Numbered from the stretch's first letter, positions 10,285-53,890 are shown. The stretch is 64,000 nt of DNA from Narcine bancroftii (GCF_036971445.1 NC_091471.1:235910001-235974000), one strand, 5' to 3'. A program made the numbers and translations. The notes: a model not told the origin generated them from the letters alone.

Positions 10285-10329
10285 CGAGAGGAAAAATGAC
10301 CACGAACTATATGTATGTGTATATATATA

Positions 10330-12023: not shown

Positions 12024-12495
12024 TATATATATATGTGTGTGTGTGTGTGTATGTATATTTGTGTGTACATGAGTGTATCCGTATTTAAAAGAAAATATAT
12101 AGAGTATAGATAAGAATGAATAAGGGAAAGAAAGGGAAGAGAGGAAGTAAGGAGGGAATTAAGAGAGTGACCTTTGTTGTATATGAAAATTAAAATCTTT
12201 TCTCTGGGGGCTGGGTGGGGAGGAGTTACGGTCACTGCGAAATCAGTTGACACTTGCGAGTGAATTCGCAAATCCAAATGGAGAAGGTAGATGTGGTTGC
12301 CCGACAAGGGATAAAGAGCAACTCAGGAAGGGGAGGGGATAGTGGGGTTAAAGAAATTTTAGATAGGAGAATAAGGGAAATGTTTGATGTTTTAGAAATG
12401 TTGTCTTATAAAGTGTTCAAAACAAGAAAGCAGAAATGGATAAGAAGGAAAGGTGATGATGACGAAACGGAAAGGGAAGATAAACAAAGTATGAA

Positions 12496-15400
12496 ATGGC
12501 TACGTTGAACTATATGACTTTAAATATTAACGGAATACATAACCAAATCAAAAGGAAGAAACTGCAAGAAACACATTGAACTGAAATGGAGCAGAAGAAA
12601 TTAAAGAGAGATTGGATAGGACATGTAACAGCAGCGTCATATAATTCAAAAGCTAGAGGAGTAGCTATATTAATCAGTAAAAATGTACCAATTAAAATAG
12701 AAGAGGAAATAATCGATCCAGCAGGGAGATATGTAATGATAAAATGTCAGATAAATTCAGAGTTTTGGAATTTACTCAATGTATATTCACCTAACGAAGA
12801 AGATCAAAAATGTATGCAAGATATTTTTTTGAAGATAGCAGACACGCAAGGGAACATACTAATAGGAGGGGATTTCAACCTTAATTTGGATTCAAACATG
12901 GATAAAACTGGGAAAAAAATTAACAGAAAGAACAAAGTAACCAAATTTATAATTAAATCGACGCAAGAAATGCAACTTTTGGATATATGGAGGAAACAAC
13001 ACCCAAAGGAAAAGGAATATTCATATTATTCGGGTAGACATAAAACATACTCAAGAATAGACCTATTCCTGTTATCATCTCACATGCAAGACAGAGTTAG
13101 AAAAACAGAATATAAAGCTAGAATATTATCGGACCACTCACCCCTGATATTGACAATAGAGTTAGAGGACATCCATCCAAGAATGTATAGATGGAGATTA
13201 AACTTCATGCTACTTAAAAGGCAGGATTTTAGAGAATTCATTGAATGACAAATTAAAATGTACTTTGAAATAAATACGGAATCAGTGAAAGATAAGTTTA
13301 TACTATGGGACGCAATGAAAGCGTTCATCAGAGGGCAAATAATAAGTTATGTAACCAAGATGAAGAAGGACTACAATCAGGAAACAGAGTAGTTGGAAAG
13401 GGAAATAGCAAATATAGAAAAAGAATTAGCAATGAAGGAAGACACAACTAAAAGAAGAGAATTGGCAGATAAAAAAATAAAATATGAAACATTACAAACA
13501 TATAAGGTGGAGAAGAAAATAATGAAGACAAAACAGAAATATGAACTAGGAGAAAAAATGCACAAAATTCTAGCATGGCAGCTTAAGACAGAACAAACTA
13601 AAAGAATGGTATTGGCATCAAGGAAAAAAGACAAACAAATCACATATAATCCAACGGAGATTAATGAAAACTTCAGAAAATTCTACGAACAATTATACCA
13701 AACTGAAAACGAAGGGAAAGAAGACAAAATAGATGAATTTTTAACTAAAATTGAACTACCAAAATTACAAATAGAGGAACAAAATAAATTAACAGAACCA
13801 TTTGAAATAGTAGAAATACAAGAGATAATAAACAAAACTACCGAATAATAAAACACCAGGAGAGGATGGATTCCCAATAGAATTCTATAAAACATTTAGA
13901 GATTTATTAATTCCTCCCCTCCTGGAAGTAATCAACCAGATTGATAAAACACAAAGCTTACCAGATTCATGCAAAACAGCAATAATTACAGTAATACCAA
14001 AGACAGGGAAAGATCCACTCGCACCAGCGTCATATAGACCAATATCTTTACATAACACAGATTATAAAATAATAGCTAAACTATTAGCAAACAGATTAGC
14101 TGACTATGTACCAAAAATAGTAAATCTAGACCAAACTGGATTTATTAAAAAAAGACGAACAACAGACAATATTTGTAAATTTATTAACTTAATTCATGCA
14201 GTAGAAGGAAATAAAGCTCCAACAGTAGCGGTTGCTTTAGACGCAGAGAAGGCCTTTGACAGAGTAGAATGGAATTATTTATTCAAAGTACTACAAAAAT
14301 TCAGTTTACCAGAGAAATATATTAATTGGATTAAAGCATTATATAAGGGGCCATTGGCGAAAGTGACAGTAAATGGATATATATATTAAAACAATTTAAA
14401 TTAAGCAGATCAACAAGGCAGGGATGCCCACTATCACCCTTATTGTTCGCGTTAGCCATAGAACCACTAGCAGAACTGATAAGAACAGAAAATAAAATAA
14501 AAGGGATAAAAATAAAAGACAAGGAATATAAAATCAGTTTATTTGCAGATGACGTTATAGTATACTTAACAGAACCAGAAATATCAATAAAAGAATTACA
14601 TAAGAAATTGAAGGAATATGGAGAAGTTTCAGGATACAAGATTAACGCAAATAAAAGTGAAGCAATGCCAATGAATAATGCGGATTTCTCAAAATTTACG
14701 AAAGAATCACCATTCAGATGGCAAATGCAAGCAATACGATACCTAGGTATACAAATAAATAAAAACCTCGGACATCTATATAAACTCAATTATTATCCAC
14801 TAATTAAAAAATTACAAGACGACTTAGAGCATTGGAAAGACTTACCACTAACACTAATAGGAAGGATAAATTGTATTAAAATGAACATTTTCCCAAGGAT
14901 ACAATACCTATTTCAGGCATTGCCAATACACTTGACGGAGAAATTCTTCAAGGAGTTAAAGAAAATAATAAGGAAATTTTTATGGAAAGGGGGGAAACCG
15001 AGGATAGCACTAGATAAATTAACAGAATGGTATAAACAAGGAGGCTTACAACTGCCAAACTTTAAATTTATTATAGAGCCGCACAATTAAGATACCTATC
15101 AGATTTTTATCAAACAAGGGAAAAAGCCAGATTGGACTAGATTAGAACTAGATAAAATAGGGGAGAAGATACCCAAACATATATTATATAAATGGGATGA
15201 AAAATTGGTACAACGTAGGAATTCTCCAGTATTAGATCATCTGCTCAATATTTGGAAGAAGATTTATGTAGAAAGGAATAAAACAAATTACCAACTATCA
15301 AAACTAATAATGACGCAAAATCAGCTAATCCCTTTTACAATAGATAACCTTTCCTTTTGAGAATGGGAGAAAAAAGGGATCAAAAGAATAGAAAATTGCT

Positions 15401-25375: not shown

Positions 25376-25454
25376 TAGGTGGGAGTGAAGCAGTACAGAG
25401 GATCATGGACGCACTAACAGCCTCCTCTCCCCACAGGTTGCCAACAGGCCTTGG

Positions 25455-25782
25455 ATGGACTACCATCAGGTCCTGTCACTCCTCTGCCCACTCCTGCTTG
25501 TGGGCTTCCTGGGGACAGCTCAGGGTCTGGGCAGCAGGGATGAAAGGGGGAAGACCCCAGGGCGCGAGCTGGCTGCCCTTCCCCCCACCGGCTCAGGGAC
25601 TGGCGATCTAACACACCTGCTGATGCAGCTCCTGTCCGAGGTCCGGAGCCACCACCATGGGTGCAGCTGTTTGGGACCAGGGCCTCTCCAGAAGGACCGC
25701 CGCGGATCCAGGCAACAGCGAGGAGGAGCGCCAGCGAGACCCCGGAGTGCCAGACGGAGATTGGGAGAGCCAGGGTGCAATG
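25455..25782 (+). CDS. First coding exon of a secreted protein, proposed N-terminus of the netrin-like gene
   Basis: Branch point CACTAAC and acceptor CCCCACAG (exon starts 25437). Signal-peptide-like MDYHQVLSLLCPLLLVGFLGTAQG. Phase-1 donor G/GTGAGT at 25782. Confidence 0.7.
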
Positions 25783-26398
25783 GTGAGTGGGTGGACAGGC
25801 AAGTGGGTGGTTGGAGGTGTGAGAAACAGAAGTACCTTCACAGATTTCGCTCGAGACAAAAATTGAGAACAAAGAACATTTATTGTACAACAGTGCAAAA
25901 TTGGGTGCTTCCCCTTACCATGGGAATACACACACATACTGGGGCTCATCTAACTTTAATACAGTTCATTTCAGTGTAGAGATACCCCCCCCCCCCCCAC
26001 CTTTAACATTCTGCCTCCTGGATTGGTTTGGCATTTGGTAATTCTGTCTGCCTACGTGTAAACTTGAAAGACCATGGGGGTATCCTGTCTGGGTCCCATC
26101 ATGTCATTGTCCTTATTCATGAATCTGCCTTTGTTCTTATTCAAACATCTCAACCCCCAGGAGTTACTAATTCTATATGCAGAATTTGCTAATTCTTTCT
26201 ATCACTATAAGACCTTTCTTCTATTATACTTGTGTAACCCTTCCTCACACTCTTATCGGAATTCATCCCTATTCAGCACTTACTTAACTTCCTCTAGTCT
26301 AGTCTATTATTCTTTATTTCATTCATACTAACTTTACTTCCTATAATCTATTATCTCTCACAATCCCCACTTTTTCTTTAGCTACGCTTAGTAAATTC

Positions 26399-27407
26399 TC
26401 AACTGGAAACTTGTTTTTCCCAGCGAATCAGTAAACGAACTGCAATCTCAGCATCATCAGACGGAGTTTGGGAAACATACATCCTTTGGGTTGTAGTGAT
26501 CTGACAAAGGGTCCGTTGAATTAAACACTGCACACAAGTCATTAGGCAGGGAAGTTTCATGATGGCTAAAGTAATGAGTCCAACTGCTATAAGGGCTGTG
26601 TGTATCCACCTCCAGTCACCAGTAAAAAGTTCAACCACCTGACCATTGTGACCATTGTCATCTATCGATCTTCCACAAACGCCGCCCTCAGCAGCTAACA
26701 AGTAATCGAGAGCCAGGCAGTTTTGATAAGCTGTCGTTGTTCTTCAGCCAATAAATCCAAGGCCATCGCTGTCTGTTTGGTGATAATCTTCAAAACTGCC
26801 TGGAGTCTGGTTAAACAGTTTAAATGCCAAACAGCTGTGGTATTCTGGAGCAGCTTGAGCCGTTTACAACTCAAATCCCCCTTATAGTGATTGCCTTTAG
26901 CCTTCCAAATTTATTCGTGACCCAAAGATGATTTACAAGATGCCAAGTTGGGGGGGAGCGTTTATTGTTACCTAACCTGTGAGTAGCAGCTTGTCTGCGA
27001 GCATTAGCATATATACCCCCTTTATCCCTACTCCAGGTAGAGCCCTGACTAATGTTCTGCCTATCATTTTCCCACCATCTTCTTTGTACCATATTTTTAG
27101 CACTCATCTCTTTAATATCTGTAGAGGCCAGGACGCCAACCCAATCCACTCCCCTAGGGCAGGTCTGTTTCCCTGGTCCATGTTGGGATCCTAAATTAAA
27201 CCATACTAAATAAGGTACCCCACTATGAATACACTCTATACCTGTGCCCTGTATGCATTCTAAAGGTAAACTTGTCCATTCCTCAAAGTAATTATCACCT
27301 CTGCTGCCCCTATTCCAGGAGGACTTAATATATTGTGTACGATTGGGTGGTTTCCCAAAAATTGGGAACCAGCAGGAAAACAATACAGCAAATAATAAAA
27401 ATAACAT
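26399..27407 (-). pseudogene. env: ERV env, internally deleted
   Basis: Hydrophobic leader MLFLLFAVLFSCW whose ATG overlaps the pol stop (TAATG). TM heptad RLQAVLKIITKQTAMALDLLA, ISD-like YQNCLALDYLLAAEGGVCG, and a membrane anchor. Confidence 0.88.
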
Positions 27408-30400
27408 TACAGCACTTTTTCCCAGCGAAGAGTAACTTTCAGACCAGAAGGATGCGAGACTGCACGCCAAGTGGAGGATGTATTATCAACGTCTTTAGTT
27501 CGTGGGTTAGCTTGTTTAATGCGTTGTATGTGAGTCCACCCCTTTTCTTTTGTTCGCACTGCAGTGTCTGTAATCAGAAGTACACAATAAGGGCCGTCCC
27601 ATATCGGTTTTAGTTTATGGTCTTGCCACGCTTTTACATATACCCAATCACCAGGTTTAACAGAATGAATAGGATAGTCCAGGGGTGGGTTTTGAGCTAA
27701 TAAACCCTTCTGTCGTAAATCATACAGAGAAGTAGAATGTCCCTGCAAATATTTAGATATGTACTGGTCATTAGCCTCAGGGATAGGGGTATCAGTGTGG
27801 AATCCCATGTAAGGAAGACCAAACATCATTTCATATGGTGAGACAGCAAGGTCTTTACGAGGAGCTGTGCGAGTCCTAATTAAAGCTAAGGGTAAGCATT
27901 TAATCCAGGAGAGGCCAGTTTCCTCATGAAGTTGAGTGAGTTGATTTTTCAGGGTCTAATTCATCCGTTCAACACGGCCTGAACTCTGGGGGAGCCATGG
28001 GGTATGTAACTGCCAATCTATTCCCAGAATTTTACACACACCCTGGAGTACCTGAGAGGTAAAATGTGTACCTCGATCTGAGTCATGGTTTGAATAATGC
28101 CATAGCGTGGAATAACAGACGCTAGTAATATCCGGATAACGGTGCTAGCACGATCATTAGGGGTCAGGAAAGCCTCAACCCATCGAGTAAAATGATCCAC
28201 CATCACCAGGAGGTATTTATAAACCCCCATCTTAGGTAATTCCGTGAAGTCAATCAGTAGCCTGTGTTCCCCAATGTGTCTGCTGGTGGAGCTGATCAAT
28301 AATCTAACGAGCCAAGGCTTTGTTCAGTACTTGGCGTCCCTCTGCCGTCCACCACAACCCATCGGCAGTTTGACGCATTCCCTGGTCTTTCATATAAACC
28401 TCCTCCTCCCGTGAAGATGGGAGTCTTTTTAACCTCATGTGGGGTGGGGAGTAACAGCTGCATGTCTATTTTTTCTGTGAGTGCAGCCTGTTTGGCAGCT
28501 TCATCTGCCCGTCTGTTCGCCTGTGCTTCAGGACTGTCAATAATTTGATGGCCCCGTACATGAACTACAGCTATCTCCTCAGGTAACATAAGAGCATCTA
28601 AGGATTGAACAATTAAGTTTTCATGGATCAACTTTTGTCCTTTCCCAGTTATCATTCCCCGCTCTTTCCAAATCTTTCCAAAGGTATGCACTACACCAAA
28701 AGCATACTTTGAGTCGGTATAGATTGTGCCCACCTTTCCCTCTAAACCCTGGAGAGCTCTACAGAGGGCATAAAATTCGCAGGATTGTGCCGACCAATGA
28801 CCGGGAAGAAGACCGGCTTCAATCACAACTCCTTCATTCCCATCCACTATACTATACCTGCTATAATGAATGCCGTCAATGCAGCGGGAAGATCCATCAA
28901 TAAACCATCTTTCACCCTCCCGTAAAGGTTCATCACTTAAATCATCTCTAATTTTTGTCTGTAAATCGATCACTTCTAAACATACATGCTCTAAATCATT
29001 GGGGACAGTATCAGAATCTGGAGAAACCAAGAAGGCGGCTGAATTCTGTTCTTTGTTCATAATCAGTGTCAAATCAGCCCTATCCATGAGAATCGCTTCA
29101 CACTTTAACATTCTAGAATCAGTAAGCCACCTTCCGGCACGTTGTAAGAGAATGCTGCGGACTGTGTGAGGGGTATGAACTAACGTCGGGGCACCAAACA
29201 TAATCTTTCATCCTTCTTTGACTAAAATAGCAGTGGCTGCAATTGCTTGCACACATTCTGGCCAACCACGACAAACGGGATCTAAAATTTTTGACAGAAA
29301 GGCAACTGGTTGTCTAAAGCCTGCCCTCTCTTGCGTTAATACTCCTATGGCCACACCATCTTTCGCATTGGTATATAGGTCAAATGGCTTATTTAGGTTG
29401 GGTAAAGCCAAAACTGGGGCACTAATAAAACGCTGTTTCACCAAGGTAAAATCTTTAATCTCCTCCTCCGTCCAGACAACAGTTTCACCCCCTAGAGTCG
29501 CAAGTTTATCATAAAGAAATTTGACCAGGCTAGAATAATTCTCAATCCAAATTCTACAGTATCCCACTAAACCAAGGAATTTTCTAAGTTCTCGAGCACT
29601 CTTTGGAGGCGGGATCTGCAGAATACCGTGTGTTCTCTCTGGACTTATCTTCCTAATTCCTTGACTAACCAGATGACCTAAGTATTTAACTTCAGATTGA
29701 ACAAATTGTAACTTTGATTCGCTCACTCTAAGACCCTTATTCCCTAGAAAATTCAGAAATTTAACAGTGTATTGTTTAACCACATCATACGTTTTTCCCG
29801 TGATTAATAAATCATCAACATATTGTATTAATTGACAATTCTCTCTCCGAGGGGCCTCATCTAGTACCTGTTCTAAAACTTGGCCAAACAAATTTGGGGA
29901 TTCTGTAAAACCCTGGGGAAGGACTGTCCACCGGTATTGATTTTTCCGTCCTGTAAAAGGATTCTCCCATTCAAATGCAAACATGTCCCTATTGTCTATT
30001 GCCAATGGACAGGTCCAGAAGGCATCTTTCAGGTCAATTACACTAAACCACTTACTATGGGGATCAATTTTACCCATTATCGTATAAGGGTTAGGTACGA
30101 CCGGATAACGGGTGAGAATGATTTTGTTTAACTCCCTCAAATCCTGCACTAATCGATAGGTACCATCTGGTTTTTGGACAGGTAAAATTAGGGTATTAAA
30201 AGGTGACATACAAGGGTCGAGTATACCATCTTTCACCAATTGGTCAATTACTGGTTGCAGCCCCTTTCGGCCAGCCATAGGAATTGGATACTGTTTTCGT
30301 CTAATTACTTGGTCAGGGTTTTTAAAGTAACTTGCAGGGGAGGAACATCTAACCCTCCTCTATTGCCTCTTTTTGCCCATACTCCAGGATTTATTAGTTC

Positions 30401-30806
30401 CCGATCCTCCTCTGTTAGTACATAAAATTGAACCCCGATACCTGATCCCTGTGGTCTGGTACCGATAGCCAATTGGTCTTGAAAATGTCATCCCAGCAGG
30501 CAAACTCCAGCTTGGGGAACTAGTAAAATATCCTCTGTTATTATCTTTTCTCCCATTTCTCCCATTCTTTAGTATAGGGACCATAAAATCTCTTCCTCCC
30601 ACTCCCAAAATTATCACTGTCCCTTCTGTTTTAACACCCTCGGGCCGTTGTAAAATACTAGACCGGGCTGCCCCAGAATCTACTAAAAAAGTCATCTCGT
30701 CACCGTGGGGTCCTATGCTTAAATTTACCAATGGTTCTCCGTGCAGCCCCACGGTGTGTATTGACTGAGAACCGTGACCCCCCCATTCATAATCTGCCTC
30801 CATCAA
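27407..30806 (-). pseudogene. pol: ERV pro-pol (protease, RT, RNase H, integrase), frameshifted
   Basis: FLVDSGA; LPQGF, QYVDDLL; FIDGSS, YTDSKYAF; IDFTELP..VDHFTRWVEAF; WDGPY. Confidence 0.94.
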
Positions 30807-30815
30807 TGCATAAGA

Positions 30816-32450
30816 TCACGTCTCCCTGGCTTGCATTGGGCATTCCCTCTTAAAGTGTCCCTCCTTTTTGCAATAATAGCAAACTAATGCTCCTGTTTCC
30901 CAATTTCTACCAGGGTCTCCACGGGGTCCCAGGGATGGTCGTCGTCCCCGGAATTCTCCTCTACCCCTGCCTCTGCTCTGGTCTCTACTTCCCCACCCCT
31001 GGCGCTCCTCCCAACGTCCAGGAGCTGGCACACAGCTCCTAACATTTCCCTGCTGTCCCTCCACAACCTCCTTGACTGCCTGCATCCACATCTTAGCCTT
31101 TCCTTTCTGTTGATCTTCAGACCTCTGGACGTATGCCCTTTGTGCGATCTGTAAAAGCTGTGTTATTCCCTGTTCATGCCAATTCTCTGTCTTTTGTAAT
31201 TTCTTCCTGATATCTGGGGCTGAATTAGTAACAAAGCCCATCAATACCAACTGTTCACCTGCTGGGGATCCTATATCCAACCCCCCATATTGCTGTATGG
31301 CCGCACGCAATCTATTCAGAAATGCAGAGGGGGGTCTCCTTGGGACCTTGGGGAACCTCAAATGCCTTCTTAAAGTTCTGTCCTTTTGAACAGACTCCTT
31401 CATTCCTTTGATTAGATTAACCCTGTACTCATCCATTTGCATGCGGCCTTCATTAGTAGTCTTATCCCAATTTGGGTTCGCCAGGGGAAATTTAGCTTCT
31501 CCAGGTATCGCCTCTGGTCCCCCTTGGTGTTCCCTATCCAAGACTCTAATCCCTGCCTGGCGAATCATTCCACGCTCATCCAAAGTAAACAGAGTCTTAA
31601 AGATAGACATGAATTCATCCCAGGTATATATATTAGGTCCCAAAAATTGATCTAATTGTTCTGCACATCCCTGAGGGTCTTCTATCAGAGAGGTCATTTC
31701 CTTCTTAAAATTGCGCACCTCCGTACTGGTCAGAGGCACATTTACGAACCCGATACCCCCCATATTCCCTCCCAAGGGAACCTCTCGTAACGGTCTCATC
31801 CAGTTAATTTCTGGCTTATCCCCTCCTCTATGATGTTCTGAATGACCCTCATAACCAAAGTCTCCTCCCTCTCGTGTCAATTGAGGCGGTAATCTTGTAC
31901 TCTGTGAGCGGGTCATCATTCCACCCCTACTTTCTTTTTCTTTCTCTAACTGTGGAGGAAGAGGGGAAGGTGAAAAAGGGTAAAGTGTAGGTGAGAGGGG
32001 GAAGATAGGAGCTGGCACAGGTGGAACATAAGGTGGAGGAAGGGAATGTAACACATCCCATCCTTGTGTTTCAGGGACAAAAGGTTCCTCATCCTTCTTG
32101 TTCTTACATCCCTTTTCGCTCAAAATCATTTGATCAAACGATCCACTGAGCCAACAGGCTGCATATTCTCTGCTCTCGGTATTACCTCCTTGATTTTAGT
32201 AGAGCCAGACGTTTAATGCCTGACACATCCAGTCCTTGTCGGATCCGAACTTTGGCCAATATACCGAACTCCCTTTTATCGGATTCTTAACCCATTCCTG
32301 ATAGCAATACCTGACCATGGTCTGTTTATCTTTCCCACGGGTTTTCCCCATACCCCAATCAGATAACATTAATCCTAAAGGACTATGTTTAGGTATCTGA
32401 TCTTCCCATCCTTCTCCAGGACTGTTTCCCTTGCTACTTACTCCTCCCAT
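30816..32450 (-). pseudogene. gag: ERV gag (MA-CA-NC) with one internal stop
   Basis: MGGVSS myristoylation-type start, SPLG..L..W, PPPY late-domain motif, SAPDIRKKLQK, CYYCKKEGHFKREC knuckle; TAA at 32196-32198. Confidence 0.92.
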
Positions 32451-33299
32451 ACTAGCAGGTAAATAAATTCCTCTTACCGGGATCCAGTAGCTATTCCTAG
32501 CGTGCTTCCTTAATGTCCTCCTGTCTTTTGTTTTCAATGCCTCTTCTCGGATATCACTCGCTTCATCCACTGACCAGTCACCCGTAGTCTGTGAGTCCAG
32601 CTGAATCAGCCGGGGTGCACCTACCCACGTCGTCGGGCACTCTGTCAGTGGAGGGAGTGGGATCCCGGACGAGCCCCCATTTGTGAGAAACAGATGTACC
32701 TTCACAGAAATTGCTCGAGACAAAAATTGAGAACAAAGAACATTTATTGTACAACAGTGCAAAGTTGGGTGCTTCCCCTTACCATGGGAATACACACACA
32801 TACTGGGGCTCATCTAACTTTTATACAGTTCATTTCAGTGTAGAGATAACCCCTCCCCCCCCCCCACCTTTAACATTCTGCCTCCTGGATTGGTTTGGCA
32901 TTTGGTAATTCTGTCTGCCTACGTGTAAACTTGAAAGACAATGGGGTATCCTGTCTGGGTCCCATCATGTCATTGTCCTTATTCATGAATCTACCTTTGT
33001 TCTTATTCAAACATCTCAACCCCCAGGAGTTACTAATTCTATATGCAGAATTTGCTAATTCTTTCTATCACTATAAGACCTTTCTTCTATTATATTTGCG
33101 TAACCCTTCCTCACACTCTTATCGGAATTCATCCCTATTCAGCACTTACTTAACTTCCTCTAGTCTAGTCTATTATTCTTTATTTCATTCATACTAACTT
33201 TACTTCCTATAATCTATTATCTCTCACAATGGGAAGGAGTTGTGAACATGGCAGTGCTGCTGGAACCAGCTGGAACAACAGCATTTCTGCTGGTGCGGA

Positions 33300-34005
33300 C
33301 CTGTGAGGAGTGGAAATACAGCGCTCCTGTGGGGGTCCAACTGCCCAGTCGACTGACATCAGCTCTGCAAAAGCTTTTAATGGCCCATTAAAGGAGCCAA
33401 CAGAAGTTTATTTAAAATCCCGCAAACACGGAGTCTGCTCCCAAGATGGCGGCGCCAGTGATCGGCAGCAGCCACGAGGGGAACAAAGGACTAGCGCAGG
33501 GCACCAGAAAAAGGGGAGAACCCCCCCCACACCTCTGTCTGAGAAGGCGAAGCAGAGGAGATGAAGCATGGAATGGTGACCAGTGAGGGGCTCGGCAGCT
33601 GGAAGACCCACGCTTGCGGCAGGCTGCTGGCAATTCAAGGCGAGGAATCTGCTGGAGAGCACTGTCTGGAGACTCGTGCTGGGCTGCGGACTCCTGGAGT
33701 CTGGCTCGAAACTGGCTGAAGGAGTTACCGGGCATCGGAACCGGGATGCGAGGGGGTGCCAAAGGGGTCCTGACCAGGTCGGAGGTTTGGATCTGGACCT
33801 CGGGTCACCGATGGTTCGGACTGGACTCTGTGGGCCTGTGGGAGCTGGAGGTGAATCCACGGACACTTGGTGACTCTGGGGAGGGGGGAGAATTCTCTTT
33901 TGCTTCTCTCTCTCTGACTGCAAGAGGCACTCCAGGCAATTCCTACCGATGGTGAAACTGTCTGCCTGACAGCAGGTAAAGGCAGTTTCACGTAATACAA
34001 TAACT
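33300..34005 (+). mobile_element. Non-coding interspersed repeat (SINE or non-autonomous LINE derivative)
   Basis: Shares GGAGGTTTGGATCT..CTGGAGGTGAATCC with 18650-18720; no credible ORF. Confidence 0.5.
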
Positions 34006-34378
34006 TGAATCAAGCACATGGAGGGGACTGTGCACCCAAAGGTGATGCTGCACCCACTCTTTAAAAAAACCTCCTGCATTCCAGGGACTGCAGGAAAATA
34101 CAATCCATATTAATCTGTGTAACACCACCTCCCCCCACACCCCACCAATGCTGATTAGACTAGAAGACATTGCATCAGAAATAGGCCATTCAACCCCTTG
34201 ATCCCTGATCCATTTTCCCACTCGGCCCCACCATCCTGGCCTTCTCCCCGACTAATTAAGAATTGACCAATCTCTGCCTCAAACACACCCAAGGACCTGG
34301 CCTCCACAACCGCCTGTGGGAACAAATTCCACAGATTCCCCACCAGCAGGCTGAAGAAATCCCTCTGTGTCTCTGCAG

Positions 34379-34460
34379 TGTGGATGCAGAAAGGACACGG
34401 ACAGATTCAGAGAATGCACAGGAAAGTGGCAAATCAAATGCAGAAGTCAGAGAGAGTACG
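34379..34460 (+). CDS. Candidate additional exon of the netrin-like gene (reading frame unresolved)
   Basis: Acceptor TGTGTCTCTGCAG and donor G/GTGAGT. 82 bp of unique sequence between two opposed CR1 fragments. One frame reads CGCRKDTDRFRECTGKWQIKCRSQREY. Confidence 0.4.
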
Positions 34461-34739
34461 GTGAGTGTTGAAGGGCGCCCACTGAGAAACGTTACACGGA
34501 AGGAATTCTTCAACCGGAGGGCGGGGAATCTGGTGCCACTGGCGGTTGTGAAGGCCAGGTTACTGGGTAGGATTAAGGCAGAGGTTGATGGTTTCAGGAG
34601 TAGCCAGAGGATCAAAGGTTATTAGGAGAAGGCAGGTGAGGAATGCGAAAGGGAAAATGGATCAGCTCATGATTACATGGTGGGGTAGACTTGATGGGCT
34701 GAATGGTCTATTCCTGCCACTGGAACTAATGACATGCTC

Positions 34740-35440
34740 GAACCCTGATACCACCCCCTTAACCTGATTCCATCCTCCACACCATGATACCACCCCCTAA
34801 TCCCGATACCATCCTCCTAACCCCAATACACCCAAAAACCATAATACCATCCGCCTAACGCTGATACCATCCCCAAATACTATACCACCTCCCTAACCTT
34901 GATACCTTCCCCCGAAAATCGATACCACACCCCCAACCCTGATACCTCCCCCAACCCTGATATCATCCCCCTAACCCCGATACCACCCCCTAACCCTGAT
35001 ACCATGCCCCTAACCCTGATATCACCCCACTAACCCTAATAACATCCCTAACCCCAAAACCATACCCCAAACATCGATACCACCCCCCAACCCTAATACC
35101 ATCCCCTTAACCCTGGCACCACCCCCTAACCCTGATACCATTCCCTAACCCTGATATGACCACCCAACACTGATACTCCCTAACCCTGATATCCCCAACC
35201 TCGATACCATCCCCTAAACCTGATACCATCCCCACAACCTGATATCATGCCTAACCCTGACACCACCACCCAGCCCTGATAACACCCCTTAACCCTGATA
35301 CCACCCCCTAATGCTGATACCATCCCCAAACCCTGATACCACCTCCCTAACCCTGATACCTTCCCCCTAACCCTGATACCACACCCCCAACCCTGATACC
35401 ACCCCCTAACCCTGAAACCATCCCCCTAATGCTGAGACCA
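34740..35440. repeat. Telomere-like minisatellite with a ~21-bp unit, CCCTAACCCTGATACCACC
   Basis: Dozens of degenerate units built on CCCTAA/CCCTGA. Confidence 0.9.
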
Positions 35441-35536
35441 CAGCCTCATGCTACTTTCTTTGGTCGATTGATTGGAGGTGTAGGGGAGGGGACGGGTGAT
35501 GCATTTTCGATCATGGATGGCTTCTCCATTTCTTAG

Positions 35537-35647
35537 CACTGCACCACATTGGCGGGGAATCGCAGCCCAATTTCCAGGATCACCGGCGTAGTGCTCGAGG
35601 CCAGAGGGCCCAGCGCTGGAATCATCGGCCCAGAAAGGTCCCCGGAG
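35537..35647 (+). CDS. Candidate internal exon of the netrin-like gene
   Basis: Acceptor CTTCTCCATTTCTTAG. A 111-bp phase 1-1 reading gives ALHHIGGESQPNFQDHRRSARGQRAQRWNHRPRKVPG, with donor G/GTCGGT. Confidence 0.5.
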
Positions 35648-35694
35648 GTCGGTGAAGGTTGGGGAGCAGACGGTGTTACAGTTAGAGTGGGGTT

Positions 35695-36095
35695 TGTACA
35701 GGGGGATGGGGAGTGGAGGGGGTTACAGAGACAGGGAGGGGGTTTGATCAAGGGGACGGGGAGTGGAGGGGTTTACAGAGACAGGGAGGGGGATGGGGAG
35801 TGGAGGGGTTTACAGAGACAGGGAGGGGGATGAGGAGTGGAGGGGTTTACAGAGACAGGGAGGGGGGTTTGAACAAGGGACGGGGAGTGGAGGGGGTCAC
35901 AGGGAGGGGGTTTAAAATGGGGGACGGGGAGTGGAGGGGTTAGAGACAGGTAGTGGGTTTGAACAGGGGCACTGAGAGTGGAGAGGATTACAGAGACAGG
36001 GAGGGTGTTTGAGCAGGGACACGGGGAGTGGAGGGGGTTACAGAGTCAGGGAGTGGGGTGTTGAACAGGGGGACCAGGAGTGGTGGGGTTTACAC
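35695..36095. repeat. G-rich minisatellite
   Basis: GGGAGTGGAGGGGTTTACAGAGACAGGGAGGGG units. Confidence 0.85.
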
Positions 36096-36199
36096 GTGTA
36101 TTTATATTTCCTTTGGCTGTCTCGTAGGTTTACCAGAGGGTCTGACAAACTCGCCACTGACAAACCTTTCTCCCATGAAACGTAAGAGACATTTGAGAA

Positions 36200-36710
36200 G
36201 GGGCTTCACTCTGTGTCCCACCCTGTGAGTGAGTGATGGGACGGGGGAAGAGGGTGCTTCACACTGTGTTCCACCCTGGGAGTGTGTGACGGGACGGGAG
36301 AGAGGGAGCTTCATTCTGTGTCCCACCACAGAATGTGTGACGGGACGGGGGGAAAGGGAGCTTCACACTGTGTTCCACCCCGGGAGTGTGTGACGGTACG
36401 GGGGGAGAGGGAGCTTCACTATGTGTCCCACCCCGGGAGTGTGTGACAGGATGGGGGAGAGGGAGCTTCACACTGTGTCCCACCCCGGAATGTGTGACGG
36501 GACGGGGGAGCGGGAGCTTCACACTGTGTTCCACCCCGGGAGTGTGTGACGGGACGGGAGAGGGAGCTTCACTCTGTGTCCCACCACGGAATGTGTAACG
36601 GGACGGGGGAGAGGGAGCTTCACACTGTGTTCCACCCCGGGAGTGTGTGATGGGACGGGGGGAGAGGGAGCTTCACTCTGTGTCCCACCCTGAGAGTGTG
36701 ACGGGACCGT
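36200..36710. repeat. ~52-bp minisatellite
   Basis: About 10 units of GGGAGCTTCACACTGTGTTCCACCCCGGGAGTGTGTGACGGGACGGGG. Confidence 0.9.
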
Positions 36711-36735
36711 TACTAAGAACCTGTGATTCCTGCAG

Positions 36736-36816
36736 AAACCAACTGCTCGTTACACTGTGAACCCTCCACTGGGAAAATTAAAATGGACCTGAAGGAATTT
36801 TGCAGCAAGGGATACG
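36736..36816 (+). CDS. NTN5: Netrin exon encoding the start of the C345C/NTR domain
   Basis: 81-bp phase 1-1 exon (CCTGCAG / GTGAGT) encoding ETNCSLHCEPSTGKIKMDLKEFCSKGY, which matches the netrin pattern C-x3-C..K..M..K..C.K.Y. Confidence 0.8.
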
Positions 36817-37333
36817 GTGAGTTCCTGTTTGTGGGAATGAGAGGAGAGGGTGAGAGGGGCAGAGGGGGGAAGAGGGAGGGGAGATGAGACTTGGGGGAAG
36901 AGAGTTGGGGAAAAGAGATGGAAGAGAGCAGGAGAGAGGGAGGTGAGAGGGTGGGAGAGAGAGGAGGGAGAAAGGGGGTGGAGTTAATGTGGGAAGAGAG
37001 GGGAGGGGTTAAGAAGAGTGTTGGAGGGGAGAGGTGGGTTTGGGAGAGGAGGCGCAGAGTGAGCGGGAGTGGGGTTTGAAGGAGGGGGATGAGGGGAGAG
37101 GGATGGAAGAAAGAGATTGAGAGTTGAAAAGGAAGAGGAGTGAATTGACCCTTACAATCTGACCTTTCACCTTTCTCTGCCTTCTCCCACCTCCTCTCCC
37201 CGTCTCTCCAACCTCATCCCCTTCCCTCTTTTCCCTTTGCCCCCTCTCCCTTCTCCTTCCTTTCTCCCTCTCATCCCTCCCTTCCCCTCTACCTCCCTCC
37301 TCCCACAACTACCTCCCTCCCCCATCCCCTCAG

Positions 37334-37902
37334 TGATCCGGGTCCGGGTTTTTGGGTCCCGGCAGCTGGGTGACTGGCGGAGATTCCGAGTCTCCATCTC
37401 CTCCATCTACCGGCCACCGTCCTGGCCCCTGGTCCCCGGGGTTCGCCACCTCTGGGTGCCATCCCGGGACTTGTCTTGTGGCTGCTTGGGGCTGGGGCCA
37501 AGCCGCACCTATCTGGTGCTGGGAGGTCCAGGGACGCGGCTGGGACCCCCTCTGGTGGTCGACCGGACGGGGGACAGCCTGCTCTGGAGGGGTGCCTGGG
37601 GGTCCCGGCTGAGGAAGCTGCAAGGGGCGCAGAAGGAGGGGAGGTGCAGAGAGTGGGTGCCCAGTCCTGGAGCTGTCTCACTCGATTTGGGTGTCTCAAC
37701 TGGTCCAGGGATCTCATCCGGTCTAGGGGTCTCACCTGGTCCAGGGATCTCACCCACTTCTAGAGAGGTCTTGCCCAGTTCAGGGGTCCCCCTCAGTCCT
37801 GGAGGGGTCTTTCCCAGTTCAAAGTCCTTGCTCAGTCTGGGGGTCTTGCCCAATTCGGGTGTCTCACCCAGTCGCAGAGGGGTCTCACGCAGCTCAATGT
37901 GA
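37334..37902 (+). CDS. NTN5: Netrin terminal coding exon (NTR domain plus Ser/Pro/Gly tail)
   Basis: VIRVRV..W.RFRVSISSIY..LWVPSRDLSCGCLGL.P.RTYLVLG..LVVDR....L.W...W..RLRKLQ.....G.C. As recalled, this is closest to netrin-5 (WVPRADLTCGCLRL). The symbol is also supported by SPHK2 proximity, as on human chr19q13. Confidence 0.82.
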
Positions 37903-43968: not shown

Positions 43969-44629
43969 GTCAGCCAGGGTCAAAGGGCAGGGGTGGCAGG
44001 GTCAAAGAGGAACGAGTGGGGTCAAGGGGCCTGAGAGCAGGGTCAAAGGGGAGGGTCATGGGAGGTCAGGGTCATAGAGGAAAAGGCATTGGGGTAGCAG
44101 GTCAAAGGGGATGGGATGGTAGGAATACATGGTCAGGGGACAGTGGAAGGTCAAAGGTGAGAGATTATTGAGACACAGTCCATGGAGACACGGGGTTAAA
44201 GAGGGTGGATGGCTCACAAAGCTTGAGAGTCGAAGGGCGACAGTGTGAAAGGGGAGGGGACAAAGGGCAGACCACAAAAGAGGGTCAAGGGGGGAGTGTT
44301 CATTAGGGAGAGGGTCAAAGTGGTTGGAGGCGAAGGTTAAGGATGGGTGAACAGTCAAAGGGCAGGGGGTGAGGTTTCAGAGAATGAGGTCAAGAGGCAG
44401 AATTGGGAAGAACATGGGCCAATGGACCGAGGATTGGGGTTCAGGGGAACAGGAGTAGGAGAGGCATAAAAGGGTGATTGGATAAAGGGGAACATGGTCG
44501 GGTAGCAGAAGATGGGAAATGGGAGAGATGATAGGGGAGCTGAATTGTTTTGGTGAATATGGAATTATTGCCTCGCTCCTTCCCCACTCTCTCTCTCTCT
44601 CTCTCCTCCTCCCCCTCCCCTCTCTCCTC

Positions 44630-45425
44630 CCCCCCCGCTCTCCTCCCCCCCGCTCTCCTTCCCCCCCGCTCTCCTTTCCCCCCGCTCTCCTTCCGCCTGC
44701 TCTCCTTCCCCCCGCTCTCCTCCCCCCCGCTCTCCTCCCCCCCGCTCTCCTCCCCCGCTCTCCTCCCCCCGCTCTCCTCCCCCCCGCTCTCCTCTCCCCC
44801 CGCTCTCCTCTCCCCCCGCTCTCCTCTCCCCCCGCTCTCCTCTCCCCCCGCTCTCCTCTCCCCCCGCTCTCCTCTCCCCCCGCTCTCCTCTCCCCCCGCT
44901 CTCCTCTCCCCCCGCTCTCCTCTCCCCCCGCTCTCCTCTCCCCCCGCTCTCCTCTCCCCCCGCTCTCCTCTCCCCCGCTCTCCTCTCCCCCGCTCTCCTC
45001 TCCCCCCGCTCTCCTCTCCCCCCGCTCTCCTCTCCCCCGCTCTCCTCTCCCCCGCTCTCCTCTCCCCCCGCTCTCCTCTCCCCCGCTCTCCTCTCCCCCC
45101 GCTCTCCTCTCCCCCCGCTCTCCTCTCCCCCCGCTCTCCTCTCCCCCCGCTCTCCTCTCCCCCCGCTCTCCTCTCCCCCCGCTCTCCTCTCCCCCCGCTC
45201 TCCTCTCCCCCGCTCTCCTCTCCCCCGCTCTCCTCTCCCCCCGCTCTCCTCTCCCCCCGCTCTCCTCTCCCCCCGCTCTCCTCTCCCCCCGCTCTCCTCT
45301 CCCCCCGCTCTCCTCTCCCCCCGCTCTCCTCTCCCCCCGCTCTCCTCTCCCCCCGCTCTCCTCTCCCCCCGCTCTCCTCTCCCCCCGCTCTCCTCTCCCC
45401 CCGCTCTCCTCCCCCCCCGCTCTCC
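44630..45425. repeat. 16-bp C-rich minisatellite (CGCTCTCCTCTCCCCC)n
   Basis: Directly visible homogeneous array. Confidence 0.97.
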
Positions 45426-45509
45426 TTCCCCCCTGCTCTCTCTCATTCCCCCTCTTTTTCCATCCCCTCCTTCTCCCCACTTCTCTCCCTTCCCCCCTCT
45501 CTCCCACAG

Positions 45510-45937
45510 AGACTCCGGCACCCACTGATCTGCTCAGCACACTTTCGGCCGGGGAGCCAGTCACGGCGCAGACGCTGCCGTCCATTTTTGCCGAGACCCC
45601 CTTGGAGCCGCCCGAGGAGATGGTGGAGGAGCCAACGGCGTCAGGGTCAGAGCCCGGAGGGGCCGAAGGGGAGGGGGCACGGGGTCGGATCGGGGATCTC
45701 GTCCTGGCGGCTGAGCTGATGGAGATGGTGAATGAGACAGTGCAGCACGTGCAGAAGGAGGCGCACTTCGAGGAGGCGTTTGGGCACGACCACGGGGCCT
45801 ACGTGCTGCCTGACGACCCGGCCATCCTGACAAAGATGGTGAAGGAGATGCAGGAAACGGTGCACGCGCAGAGCTGGCGACTGTCAGTGTTGCAGCACGA
45901 GCTGGCATCCACGCTAGCGCTGTACAAGGAGCTGAAG
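45510..45937 (+). CDS. THAP-like gene exon 2 (AVPTIF-like box, acidic linker, HBM-like motif, coiled coil)
   Basis: Acceptor CTCTCCCACAG. TLPSIF; DHGAY; ILTKMVKEMQETVHAQSWRLSVLQHELASTLALYKELK. Phase-0 donor AAG/GTCAGC. Confidence 0.75.
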
Positions 45938-46019
45938 GTCAGCATGAGGACCCGCCCACTTCCCACCCCTGCTCCTCCCACCTTCCGACCCCAACCCTCC
46001 TCCCCCCACAGCTCCGCCA

Positions 46020-46280
46020 GCCCCGACCCCCGATCCTCCCGACCCCCGATCCTCCCGACCCCGATCCTCCCGACCCCCGATCCTCCCGACCCCCGATCCT
46101 CCCGACCCCCGATCCTCCCGACCCCGATCCTCCCGACCCCCGATCCTCCCGACCCCCGATCCTCCCGACCCCCCACTCTCCCGACCCCCCACCCTCCCGA
46201 CCCCCCACCCTCCCGACCCCCCACCCTCCCGACCCCCCACCCTCCCGACCCCCCACCCTCCCGACCCCCCACCCTCCCGT
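46020..46280. repeat. 16-bp minisatellite (CCCGACCCCCGATCCT)n
   Basis: Directly visible. Confidence 0.95.
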
Positions 46281-46476
46281 ACCACTCAACTCCTGTCCTG
46301 TGCTACCATGCTCCTCCAGTCCCACGCATCTCCCATCCCGCACTCCTCCCGACATGCGCTCCTCTTCTCACGCTCCTCTCTTTTCGCGCTCTTCCCGTCC
46401 CCGACTCCTCCCGTCCACCGCACCTCCCATCCCCCGCTCCTCTACATCTCTCGACTCGGCTCCTCTACTCATACAG

Positions 46477-47985
46477 ACCCTCGCCCCTCTACAACTCCTG
46501 TCCCTCGCCCCTCTACAACCCCTGTCCCTCGCCCCTCTACAACCCTGTCCCTCGCCCTTCTACAACCCCTGTCCCTCGCCCCTCTACAACCCCTGTCCCT
46601 CGCCCCTCTACAGCTCCTGTCCCTCGCCCCTCTACAGCTCCTGTCCCTCGCCCCTCTACAGCTCCTGTCCCTCGCCCCCTCTACAACTCCTGTCCCTCGC
46701 CCCTCTACAACTCCTGTCCCTCGCCCCTCTACAACTCCTGTCCCTCGCCCCTCTACAACTCCTGTCCCTCGCCCCTCTACAACTCCTGTCCCTCGCCCCT
46801 CTACAAGCCCTAACCCTCGCCCCTCTACAACCCCTGTCCCTCGCCCCTCTACAACCCCTGTCCCTCGCCCCTCTACAACCCCTGTCCCTCGCCCCTCTAC
46901 AACCCCTGTCCCTCGCCCCTCTACAACCCCTGTCCCTCGCCCCTCTACAACCCCTGTCCCTCGCCCCTCTACAACCCCTGTCCCTCGCCCCTCTACAGCT
47001 CCTGTCCCTCGCCCCTCTACAACTCCTGTCCCTCGCCCCTCTACAACTCCTATCCCTCGCCCCTCTACAACTCCTGTCCCTCGCCCCTCTACAACTCCTG
47101 TCCCTCGCCCCTCTACAACTCCTGTCCCTCGCCCCTCTACAACTCCTGTCCCTCGCCCCTCTACAACTCCTGTCCCTCGCCCCTCTACAAGCCCTAACCC
47201 TCGCCCCTCTACAACCCCTGTCCCTCGCCCCTCTACAACCCCTGTCCCTCGCCCCTCTACAACTCGTCCCTCGCCCCTCTACAACCCCCGTCCCTCGCCC
47301 CTCTACAACCCCCGTCCCTCGCCCATCTACAACCCCCGTCCCTCGCCCCTCTACAACCCCCGTCCCTCGCCCCTCTACAACCCCCGTCCCTCGCCCCTCT
47401 ACAACCCCCGTCCCTCGCCCCTCTACAACCCCTGTCCCTCGCCCTCTACAACCCCTGTCCCTCGCCCCTCTACAACTCCTGTCCCTCGCCCTCTACAACC
47501 CCTGTCCCTCGCCCCTCTACAACCCCTGTCCCTCGCCCCTCTACAACCCCTGTCCTCGCCCCTCTACAACCCCTGTCCCTCGCCCCTCTACAACCCCTGT
47601 CCCTCGCCCCTCTACAACCCCTGTCCCTCGCCCCTCTACAACCCCTGTCCCTCGCCCCTCTACAACCCCTGTCCCTCGCCCCTCTACAACCCCTGTCCCT
47701 CGCCCCTCTACAACCCCTGTCCCTCGCCCCTCTACAACCCCTGTCCCTCGCCCCTCTACAACCCCTGTCCCTCGCCCCTCTACAACCCCTGTCCCTCGCC
47801 CCTCTACAACCCCTGTCCTCGCCCCTCTACAACCCCTGTCCCTCGCCCCTCTACAACCCCTGTCCCTCGCCCCTCTACAACCCCTGTCCCTCGCCCCTCT
47901 ACAACCCCTGTCCCTCGCCCCTCTACAACCCCTGTCCCTCGCCCCTCTACAACCCCTGTCCCTCGCCCCTCTACAACCCCTGTCC
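46477..47985. repeat. 24-bp minisatellite (CCCTCGCCCCTCTACAACCCCTGT)n
   Basis: About 60 near-identical units. Confidence 0.97.
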
Positions 47986-48284
47986 CCCGCCCCCCCCCAG
48001 CCCCCGTCCCCCACCCCCCCCCAGCCCCCGTCCCCCGCCCCCCCCCAGCCCCGTCCCCCGCCCCCCCCAAGCCCCCGTCCCCCGCCCCTCCCCAGCCCCC
48101 GTCCCCCACACCCTCTCTCCTCCCCATCCACTGCTTACTCTTCCTCTCACCCCTTTCTGTGCTCCCACCATCTCCCCTCAACCCCCATTGCACCCTCTAT
48201 TCCCATCTCTGGTGAGCAGAATGAGAAATAAACCCAGATTCCACCTCTCCATCTCTGCCCCTCTCTCACCTCCTCATCCCCTTT

Positions 48285-50000
48285 CTCTCCCGTCCCCATC
48301 TCTCTCTCTCCCGTCCCCATCTCTCTCCCATCCCCATCTCTCTCTCCCGTCCCCATCTCTCTCTCCGTCCCATCTCTCTCTCTCCCGTCCCCATCTCTCT
48401 CTCTCTCCCGTCCCCATCTCTCTCTCTCTCCCGTCCCCATCTCTCTCTCTCTCCCGTCCCCATCTCTCTCTCTCTCCCGTCCCCATCTCTCTCTCTCTCC
48501 CGTCCCCATCTCTCTCTCTCTCCCGTCCCCCCATCTCTCTCTCTCTCTCCCGTCCCCATCTCTCTCTCTCTCCGTCCCCATCTCTCTCTCTCTCCCGTCC
48601 CCATCTCTCTCTCTCTCCCGTCCCCATCTCTCTCTCTCTCCCGTCCCCATCTCTCTCTCTCTCCCGTCCCCATCTCTCTCTCTCTCCCGTCCCCATCTCT
48701 CTCTCTCTCCCGTCCCCATCTCTCTCTCTCCCGTCCCCATCTCTCTCTCTCCCGTCCCATCTCTCTCTCTCTCCGTCCCCATCTCTCTCTCCCGTCCCCA
48801 TCTCTCTCTCTCTCCCCGTCCCCATCTCTCTCTCTCTCCCGTCCCCATCTCTCTCTCTCCCGTCCCCATCTCTCTCTCTCTCCCGTCCCCATCTCTCTCT
48901 CTCTCCCGTCCCCATCTCTCTCTCTCCCGTCCCCATCTCTCTCTCTCCCGTCCCATCTCTCTCTCTCCCGTCCCCATCTCTCTCTCTCCCGTCCCATCTC
49001 TCTCTCTCCCGTCCCATCTCTCTCTCTCCCGTCCCCATCTCTCTCTCTCCCGTCCCCATCTCTCTCTCTCCCGTCCCCATCTCTCTCTCTCCCGTCCCCA
49101 TCTCTCTCTCTCCCGTCCCCATCTCTCTCTCTCCCGTCCCCATCTCTCTCTCTCCCGTCCCCATCTCTCTCTCTCCCGTCCCCATCTCTCTCTCTCCCGT
49201 CCCCATCTCTCTCTCTCCCGTCCCCATCTCTCTCTCTCCCGTCACAATCTCTCTCCCGTCCCCATCTCTCTCTTCCCGTCCCCATCTCTCTCTCTCTCCC
49301 GTCCCCATCTCTCTCTCTCTCCCGTCCCCATCTCTCTCTCTCTCCCGTCCCCATCTCTCTCTCTCTCCCGTCCCCATCTCTCTCTCTCTCCCGTCCCCAT
49401 CTCTCTCTCTCTCCCGTCCCCATCTCTCTCTCTCTCCCGTCCCCATCTCTCTCTCTCTCCCGTCCCCATCTCTCTCTCTCCCGTCCATCTCTCTCTCTCC
49501 CGTCCCCATCTCTCTCTCTCTCCCGTCCCCATCTCTCTCTCTCCCTCCCCATCTCTCTCTCTCTCCCGTCCCCATCTCTCTCTCTCTCCCGTCCCATCTC
49601 TCTCTCTCTCCCGTCCCCATCTCTCTCTCTCTCCCGTCCCCATCTCTCTCTCTCCCGTCCCATCTCTCTCTCTCCCGTCCCCATCTCTCTCTCTCCCGTC
49701 CCCATCTCTCTCTCTCTCCCGTCCCCATCTCTCTCTCTCTCCCGTCCCCATCTCTCTCTCTCTCCCGTCCCCATCTCTCTCTCTCCCGTCCCCATCTCTC
49801 TCTCTCTCCCGTCCCATCTCTCTCTCTCTCCCGTCCCCATCTCTCTCTCTCCCGTCCCATCTCTCTCTCTCCGTCCCCATCTCTCTCTCTCCCGTCCCAT
49901 CTCTCTCTCTCTCCCGTCCCCATCTCTCTCTCTCCCGTCCCCATCTCTCTCTCTCCAATCCCCATCTCTCTCTCTCCCATCCCCATCTCTCTCTCCCGTC
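48285..50000. repeat. ~21-23-bp minisatellite (CCCGTCCCCATCTCTCTCTCT)n
   Basis: Directly visible; CT tract length varies between units. Confidence 0.97.
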
Positions 50001-50223: not shown

Positions 50224-50423
50224 NNNNNNNNNNNNNNNNNNNNNNNNNNNNNNNNNNNNNNNNNNNNNNNNNNNNNNNNNNNNNNNNNNNNNNNNNNNNN
50301 NNNNNNNNNNNNNNNNNNNNNNNNNNNNNNNNNNNNNNNNNNNNNNNNNNNNNNNNNNNNNNNNNNNNNNNNNNNNNNNNNNNNNNNNNNNNNNNNNNNN
50401 NNNNNNNNNNNNNNNNNNNNNNN
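50224..50423. other. Assembly gap
   Basis: Run of N. Confidence 1.
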
Positions 50424-53400: not shown

Positions 53401-53739
53401 TGTTTTGAACACTTTATAAGACAACATTTCTAAAACATCAAACATTTTCCTTATTCTCCTATTTAAAACTTCTTTAACCTCATTCTCCCCTCCCCCTCCT
53501 GAGTTGCCCTTTATCCCTTGTTGGGCAACCACATCTCCCCTCTCCATTTGGATTTGCGAATTCACTCGCAAACGTCAACTGATTTTGCAGTGACCGTAAC
53601 TCCTCCCCACCCAGCCCCCCCTGGAAAAGATTTCAATTTTCATATATAACAAAGGTCACTCTTTTAATTCCCTCCTTATTCCCTCTATTCCCTTTCATTC
53701 CCTTATTAATTCTTATCTATACTCTATATATTTTCCTCT

Positions 53740-53890
53740 NNNNNNNNNNNNNNNNNNNNNNNNNNNNNNNNNNNNNNNNNNNNNNNNNNNNNNNNNNNNN
53801 NNNNNNNNNNNNNNNNNNNNNNNNNNNNNNNNNNNNNNNNNNNNNNNNNNNNNNNNNNNNNNNNNNNNNNNNNNNNNNNNNNNNNNNNNN
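53740..53890. other. Assembly gap at the microsatellite/RTE 3' junction
   Basis: Run of N. Confidence 1.

Follow-up and report, generated by a model that had tools for sequence, protein, structure and literature searches.

A netrin-5 ortholog without detectable laminin domains in the electric ray Narcine bancroftii

In netrins of the standard architecture (PMC10084454) the sites for DCC lie in the laminin-N (LN) domain and in EGF2 and EGF3, and UNC5 function is tied to EGF2 (PMC10871540). The NTR domain, or C345C, is the main heparin-binding site of netrin; it is described as dispensable for binding to DCC, neogenin and UNC-5 and for guidance, and it is usually removed in structural work (PMC10871540). 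The C terminus of netrin-1 binds integrins, mutations in the NTR of NTN1 occur in congenital mirror movements (PMC7843923), and one study, as cited in PMC4403520, placed a contact with UNC5C in C345C. Netrin-5 (NTN5), once held to be mammal-only by an early paper (PMC4403520), is without LN in mammals and in mouse also without one laminin-EGF (LE) repeat (PMC4403520); the mouse knockout is mild (PMC4726805), and the gene is missing in birds and has long branches (PMC5327424). The TIMPs are netrin-domain-only proteins (PMC3516229), and a review of netrin isoforms mentions no NTR-only form in the passages covered (PMC6408995). In the open-access literature we found no paper on NTN5 in cartilaginous fishes, and the supplementary trees of PMC5327424 and PMC3516229 may include some. 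Here we describe a gene of the electric ray Narcine bancroftii that on sequence grounds is an NTN5 ortholog by lineage, as placed by two trees built on different domains, and in which we find an NTR domain and neither LN nor LE domains. It lies on the + strand of a 64,000-nt stretch of genomic DNA (GCF_036971445.1, NC_091471.1:235910001-235974000), called the window below, in which all positions are counted from the first letter.

The gene has five coding exons, and the spliced product is a 380-aa protein identical letter for letter to RefSeq XP_069768863.1/XP_069779020.1 of N. bancroftii; a query with the last exon returned one protein, this same 380-aa one, at 100% identity. The gene is already in RefSeq, with its start at ATG 25455 and under the label 'uncharacterized protein', and its LE-less architecture is known from one species. 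A first-pass annotation of the window had joined four exons into a frame of 1089 nt and 362 aa; their AG/GT ends and phase-1 compatibility stand, but the exon at 36128-36181 had been overlooked, and with it 18 residues. Exon 1 (25437-25782) contains the start codon, a predicted signal peptide of about residues 1-24 (25455-25526, cleavage point judged by eye) and a disordered segment, and ends at a phase-1 donor. Exon 2 (35537-35647, 111 nt) is Arg-rich, has zero cysteines and occupies the position expected for LE3, and exon 3 (36128-36181, 54 nt) is a linker exon recognized by its RefSeq match, by the spacing of 246 nt in a transcript contig and by its resemblance to the netrin linker before NTR (p 0.011 against 14 netrin linkers). 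The NTR domain starts in exon 4 (36736-36816, 81 nt; C168, C172 and C187) and continues in exon 5 (37334-37902) to C296 (37645-37647), after which follows a disordered C-terminal tail of 84 aa, Pro/Ser/Gly-rich and partly composed of short tandem repeats, up to the stop at 37900-37902. All four introns are phase 1, and this layout of phase-1 introns, a short linker exon and an NTR divided between two exons may correspond to that of other netrins. Assembly N gaps occur only at 50224-50423 and 53740-53890; the gene contains none, and by this measure the misassembly that had been raised as a concern is not seen. The two identical RefSeq proteins are on two contigs, which could represent a recent duplicate, a sex-chromosome pair or a duplicated scaffold.

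The NTR domain had been read at first pass as a complete netrin C345C module, and this is borne out by the match to PF01759 (E 1.3e-8 for the last exon alone, E 2.5e-12 for the whole protein), by six NTR cysteines (C168, 172, 187, 240, 242 and 296) and by a confident predicted fold: the AlphaFold model has pLDDT 80-97 over residues 171-300, is largely disordered in the remainder, and matches C345C and PCOLCE NTR structures. Among the columns that are near-invariant (at least 85%) in 24 other netrins 19 of 20 are kept, as they are in the NTR of the horn shark Heterodontus, compared with 15 of 59 variable columns. Both the NTR domain and the linker are basic (pI 10.5 and 11.7, respectively). Residues 6-18 are hydrophobic (mean Kyte-Doolittle value 2.6) and residues 3-19 are modelled as a helix, which fits the predicted signal peptide, as judged by hydropathy and not by a dedicated predictor. 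The product is accordingly predicted to begin with a signal peptide, followed by a disordered basic stretch of about 140 residues, the NTR domain and a tail that is again disordered, and a Pfam scan of the 380-aa protein returned NTR only, with LN and LE not found. Bearing neither LN nor LE, the protein is by its architecture not to be filed as a netrin ligand.

Laminin exons were searched for at the level of the DNA as well. Profiles of LN, LE1, LE2 and LE3 (14-23 netrins) had no significant match in any of the six frames of the 64-kb window (best E 0.31; for LN, best E 2.0), nor did the 120 relatives used in tblastn, while the same profile approach recovered the 25-codon NTR exon at E 4e-4 as a positive control. 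Rebuilt minus the sharks, the profiles found 8 of 8 shark LE repeats at E < 1e-19 and recovered mutated LE copies in 160 of 160 cases with 30% of sites changed and in 132 of 160 with 50% changed; on the window their best match was E 0.27. A six-frame scan for cysteine motifs showed zero LE-type motifs on the + strand within the gene, and of 85 phase-compatible AG..GT candidates in the four introns a single one, located in a provirus in intron 1, has at least six cysteines.

Transcript evidence was taken from assembled contigs of four public runs, all of one study and presumed to be RNA, that contain the last exon; the contigs carry no information on expression level or tissue. In run X3, positions 203-551 of a 1100-nt contig match window 25433-25781, and its positions 798-1100 match 37333-37635, with zero mismatches. 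The first and last coding exons are separated in this contig by 246 nt, which equals the summed lengths of exons 2 to 4 (111+54+81), whereas the four-exon chain would give 192, and thus there is no space for an LE exon; the agreement is one of length, as the intervening letters are not displayed. Matching to exon 1 begins at 25433 and ends at 25781 in the contigs of both X1 and X3, and two X1 contigs break at 36155 and 36152, the branch points expected from the two ends of the 54-nt exon (k=31 assumed). The concern that exon 25437 might splice to a different gene is answered by its presence on one contig with the NTR exon. We consider it highly probable that a netrin-5 transcript without LE is made, and the first-pass observation of no LE exon in the non-repeat sequence between the exons is upheld by the transcript spacing as well as by the profile and tblastn searches of the window.

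The contigs also carry about 200 nt of upstream sequence, and at least one upstream exon was looked for in the window and not located; of 13 ACAG-G[TC] sites examined for it, none was convincing. One could take this as a sign that the short product represents a minor isoform or arises from the assembly, and that an NTN5 with LN and LE is made from exons that lie outside the window, are missing from the assembly or belong to the second locus, as might also be suggested by the two identical RefSeq proteins on two contigs, by several shark models that lie on short contigs (two of them flagged partial) and by the scope of the search, which was the 64-kb window. The interval in which laminin exons would be required, from the signal-peptide exon to the linker exon, is nevertheless gap-free and LE-free, the contig joins across it, and the second record contains this short protein again, and we regard this alternative as very unlikely.

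One stretch of intron 1 deserves mention in this context. A candidate LE exon at 34254-34520 was rejected; its tblastn and HMM matches were weak (E 0.012-0.7; 0.31) and lay partly over LINE-like repeats. Within it, 34368 is the top match in the window to a profile of the LE2 start (31.2, next 22.1), a score reached by 11 of 300 permuted profiles. The stretch 34368-34460, on the gene strand, is flanked by two LINE-like pieces and borders at 34461 on GTGAGT, which resembles a donor and coincides with breaks in X1 contigs. It is possibly a decayed LE2 exon, and possibly a LINE fragment (LINE alignment 42 against a shuffled maximum of 43); it is absent from the spliced contig.

Regarding the identity of the gene, the sole PDB match by sequence is netrin-1 (8snp, E 9.5e-27, residues 156-298), and HMMER, run on 1.84 billion representatives, found 119 matches, the protein itself among them, the best of the others being a netrin-1-like protein of Heterodontus (47% identity, E 1.6e-35). 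A quick NTR tree of 106 out of 135 domains, after removal of 29 short or redundant ones, placed the gene with NTN5 at a support of 88, and a careful tree of 35 selected rows agrees with it. In the latter, Narcine groups with the ray Mobula (97/92), both group with Heterodontus, Cetorhinus and Heptranchias (100/98), and this cartilaginous fish clade is sister to the NTN5 of snake, mammals and ray-finned fishes (97/90). Topology tests of the five cartilaginous fish rows rejected a grouping with NTN1 (p-AU 0.005) and with all NTN2/3 (p-AU 0.002). In a separate tree of LN+LE, the three sharks group with amniote NTN5 (SH-aLRT 99), and teleost NTN5 falls outside the group. The first-pass suggestion of a strongly remodelled NTN5 is in line with these trees and with the comparison to the shark orthologs, which are Heterodontus XP_067882344.1, Heptranchias XP_067837147.1 and Cetorhinus XP_078392683.1, all labelled netrin-1-like. 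They are closest to the ray protein in NTR (43-50% identity) and share with it a C-terminal extension past NTR, but unlike the ray protein they bear LE (3 of 3) and LN (2 of 3; the remaining model is partial). As the shark orthologs have LE and LN, the condition of the ray is a loss and not a primitive absence. We note that, by the grouping of these three RefSeq proteins with NTN5, cartilaginous fishes also possess an NTN5 that has both LN and LE, and that in three public models a netrin part seems to be joined to a gene unrelated to it (as in a Polypterus 'ZP3' with an NTN5-type NTR end), probably through annotation errors.

That the gene instead belongs to another NTR family, as a C17orf58-like gene or a netrin-3 derivative, we consider extremely unlikely. 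In a language-model search with the whole protein, C17orf58 (UPF0450) came first by features (0.93) and netrins came first by structure, and the TIMPs, like C17orf58 secreted and NTR-only, scored 0.82-0.83; these proteins were compared by features only. Residues 1-165 alone gave nothing above 0.76 in the same search. As regards netrin-3, 13 named mammalian proteins rank after the sharks among the matches, and monophyly with mammalian NTN3 survives the topology test. Set against this are the single PDB match to netrin-1, a best relative that is a shark LN-LE-NTR netrin, and two trees on different domains that lead to NTN5. C17orf58 is not among the 20 relatives identified by name, and the NTR domain is here of the netrin-1/3/5 type. 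We therefore read the similarity to C17orf58 as a shared layout, probably convergent, and not as kinship.

Among other rays, Mobula hypostoma netrin-5-like (XP_062891282.1) was the only ortholog among the named matches, a weak result as 20 of 118 HMMER matches were named and word searches extended to 8000 candidates. The Mobula protein, sister to that of Narcine in the NTR tree, consists of NTR and a Pro/Ser/Gly tail in a model without LE, and differs in that the model begins at a Met within NTR, is without signal peptide and may be incomplete. A tail repeat common to Narcine and Mobula was considered and rejected, the similarity being no better than that of shuffles (p 0.49). Mammalian NTN5 belongs to the same orthologous group and also has a reduced N-terminus with LN lost or vestigial (PMC4403520; in Jaculus by Pfam), but differs in having kept two or three LE repeats and in being a candidate ligand of DCC (PMC4403520, PMC4726805).

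If LE and LN were lost, remnants might be found in the N-terminal exons. At the end of exon 1, the final 41 codons (25662-25782, residues 70-110) have a CxCxG start and an RP-x11-C-x-A end with the intron within the Ala codon, and include RPRSARRR and three cysteines. The spacing at the end is that with which LE1 closes in 29 netrins retrieved for comparison, and LE domains of other netrins generally finish at a phase-1 intron within this Ala. In post hoc global alignments against shuffles, the segment resembles LE1 (12 repeats, p 0.0067) and to a lesser degree LE2 (p 0.031) and LE3 (p 0.091), and end-anchored scores gave p 0.005-0.03, a level that 25 of the window's 1776 donor-like sites without a stop also reach. 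When exons 1-3 were aligned locally and without anchoring to 10 orthologs in each of three frames, the scores stayed at the level of chance (best p 0.03 of 90 tests). The evidence is suggestive of a decayed LE1 at the end of exon 1, to which the resemblance is weak. Exon 2 as a decayed LE3 (p 0.11-0.24) and the head of exon 1 as a decayed LN start (p 0.74) were unsupported.

The same segment bears on the possibility that the product is a pro-protein, in which a convertase cuts the basic linker and the free NTR signals via another receptor. RPRSARRR and HRRSAR had been taken as convertase-like sites in a possibly processed protein. The minimal motif R-x-x-R is enriched in residues 25-146 (7 against 3.1 expected from shuffles, p 0.014), the linker is predicted to be disordered and hence accessible, and the feature search places the whole protein near C17orf58, apparently of the same layout. 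On the other hand, the strict furin motif R-x-[KR]-R occurs zero times in residues 25-146, dibasic pairs are not enriched (5 against 4.2), and RPRSARRR sits where the motif of a decayed LE1 would, aligning with the RPW motif at the LE1 end. The processing claim has no support from a strict furin site, and we find the pro-protein alternative improbable.

We are inclined to explain the locus as an NTN5 ortholog in which erosion has left a secreted and basic NTR protein that binds heparan sulfate, a function predicted for this one species. The LN-LE1 exon would have undergone internal deletion and decay, the LE2 exon would have been lost or skipped, and the LE3 exon would have decayed; as all introns are phase 1, laminin exons could be lost without breaking the frame. 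The protein would be secreted, and complexes with DCC/neogenin or UNC5 that require LN, EGF2 and EGF3 would not form. Since the mapped sites for DCC and UNC5 lie in domains that are absent here (PMC10871540), the ray protein is not expected to act as a DCC ligand, and to this extent the earlier notion of a receptor-blind protein is plausible; it is weakened in that the netrin-1 C terminus binds integrins (PMC7843923) and an UNC5C contact has been placed in C345C (PMC4403520). The basic NTR could bind heparan sulfate, and perhaps integrins, and thereby be retained on the cell surface and basement membrane, where it might serve in adhesion or as a matrix component acting locally, or else compete for the sites on heparan sulfate by which full-length netrins are anchored, in neither case working as a guidance cue. 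It is fairly probable that the product is still functional, and, if it is, binding to heparan sulfate or matrix would quite likely be its mode. Netrin-5 of the ray may, in other words, be a matrix protein instead of a guidance cue.

The main rival is that the gene is in decay, with NTN5 drifting to loss, the transcript a leftover and the protein functionless. The long NTR branch, the nearly unrecognizable N-terminal exons, a tail composed of repeats and a provirus 35 nt past the first donor would all fit this, as would the absence of NTN5 from birds (PMC5327424) and the mild mouse knockout (PMC4726805). It is countered by a 380-codon frame that is open across five exons, two of them heavily diverged, by the preservation of six cysteines in the NTR and of 19 of 20 invariant sites on so long a branch, and by the retained signal peptide and exact splicing, and we consider it unlikely.

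Several further points weigh against a functional NTN5 of reduced architecture. The NTR branch is long (0.33+0.54 compared with 0.15+0.20 for Heterodontus), so the constraint may be partly old and need not reflect present-day selection. Three cysteines are present in the mature N-terminus, and as their number is odd they could hinder secretion; mouse NTN5 is poorly secreted in cell lines (PMC4726805). The spliced chain is one contig from one run of one study, the run is presumed to be RNA and the 246 letters in between are not displayed, and unspliced intron contigs of similar depth occur in X1. As to lineage, the grouping with mammalian NTN3 alone survives the test (p-AU 0.076), and no synteny was obtained, as Pfam on 150 of 199 flank ORFs gave retroelement domains only. 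The tests for LE remnants were chosen after the motif had been seen, and p < 0.01 was reached by LE1 only. The Mobula model begins inside NTR and is hence silent on the N-terminus and on a shared loss.

Taken with the other vertebrates, the eroded ray NTN5 would extend a series in which sharks have LN+LE+NTR, mammals LE+NTR, this ray NTR alone, and birds have lost the gene. A netrin gene that retains only NTR under apparent constraint makes an independent function of the NTR testable. One could go further and propose that rays as a group have made netrin-5 into a receptor-free, secreted, basic, NTR-only matrix factor with a job of its own, namely to compete with full-length netrins and other cues bound to heparan sulfate or to anchor them, its laminin exons having decayed in frame. 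This extension is possible though doubtful; if true, it would be a natural domain deletion showing a selected function of the supposedly dispensable netrin NTR, and a convergent path to the layout of C17orf58 and the TIMPs.

Most of intron 1 is taken up by the provirus, an LTR retroelement on the - strand at 25818-33230, which starts 35 nt past the exon-1 donor. Its LTRs (25818-26364 and 32682-33230, ends TGTGAGA...TCTCACA) are 97.5% alike, its flanks GAGG and ATGG are not a target-site duplication, and separate ORFs encode Gag_p30, RT, RNase H and an MLV-type integrase C-terminus, as identified by Pfam. Related copies are abundant in the contigs of the public runs. A long LINE-type element lies on either side of the gene, at 8937-15368 and 50424-55834, in two copies that are inverted to each other and 90-98% alike, the left one interrupted at about 10331-11992 by a 1.6-kb RT-bearing insert of another LINE. 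A broken LTR retroelement with pieces of protease, RT, RNase H and integrase is found at 57554-59810 (+), and about 5 kb of adjacent pyrimidine-rich minisatellites (units of 16, 24 and 23 nt) occupy 44617-49995, directly before the N gap at 50224. At 1290-1760 there is a CpG-rich, promoter- or first-exon-like segment with ORFs that have no Pfam match, which could belong to this gene or to a neighbor.

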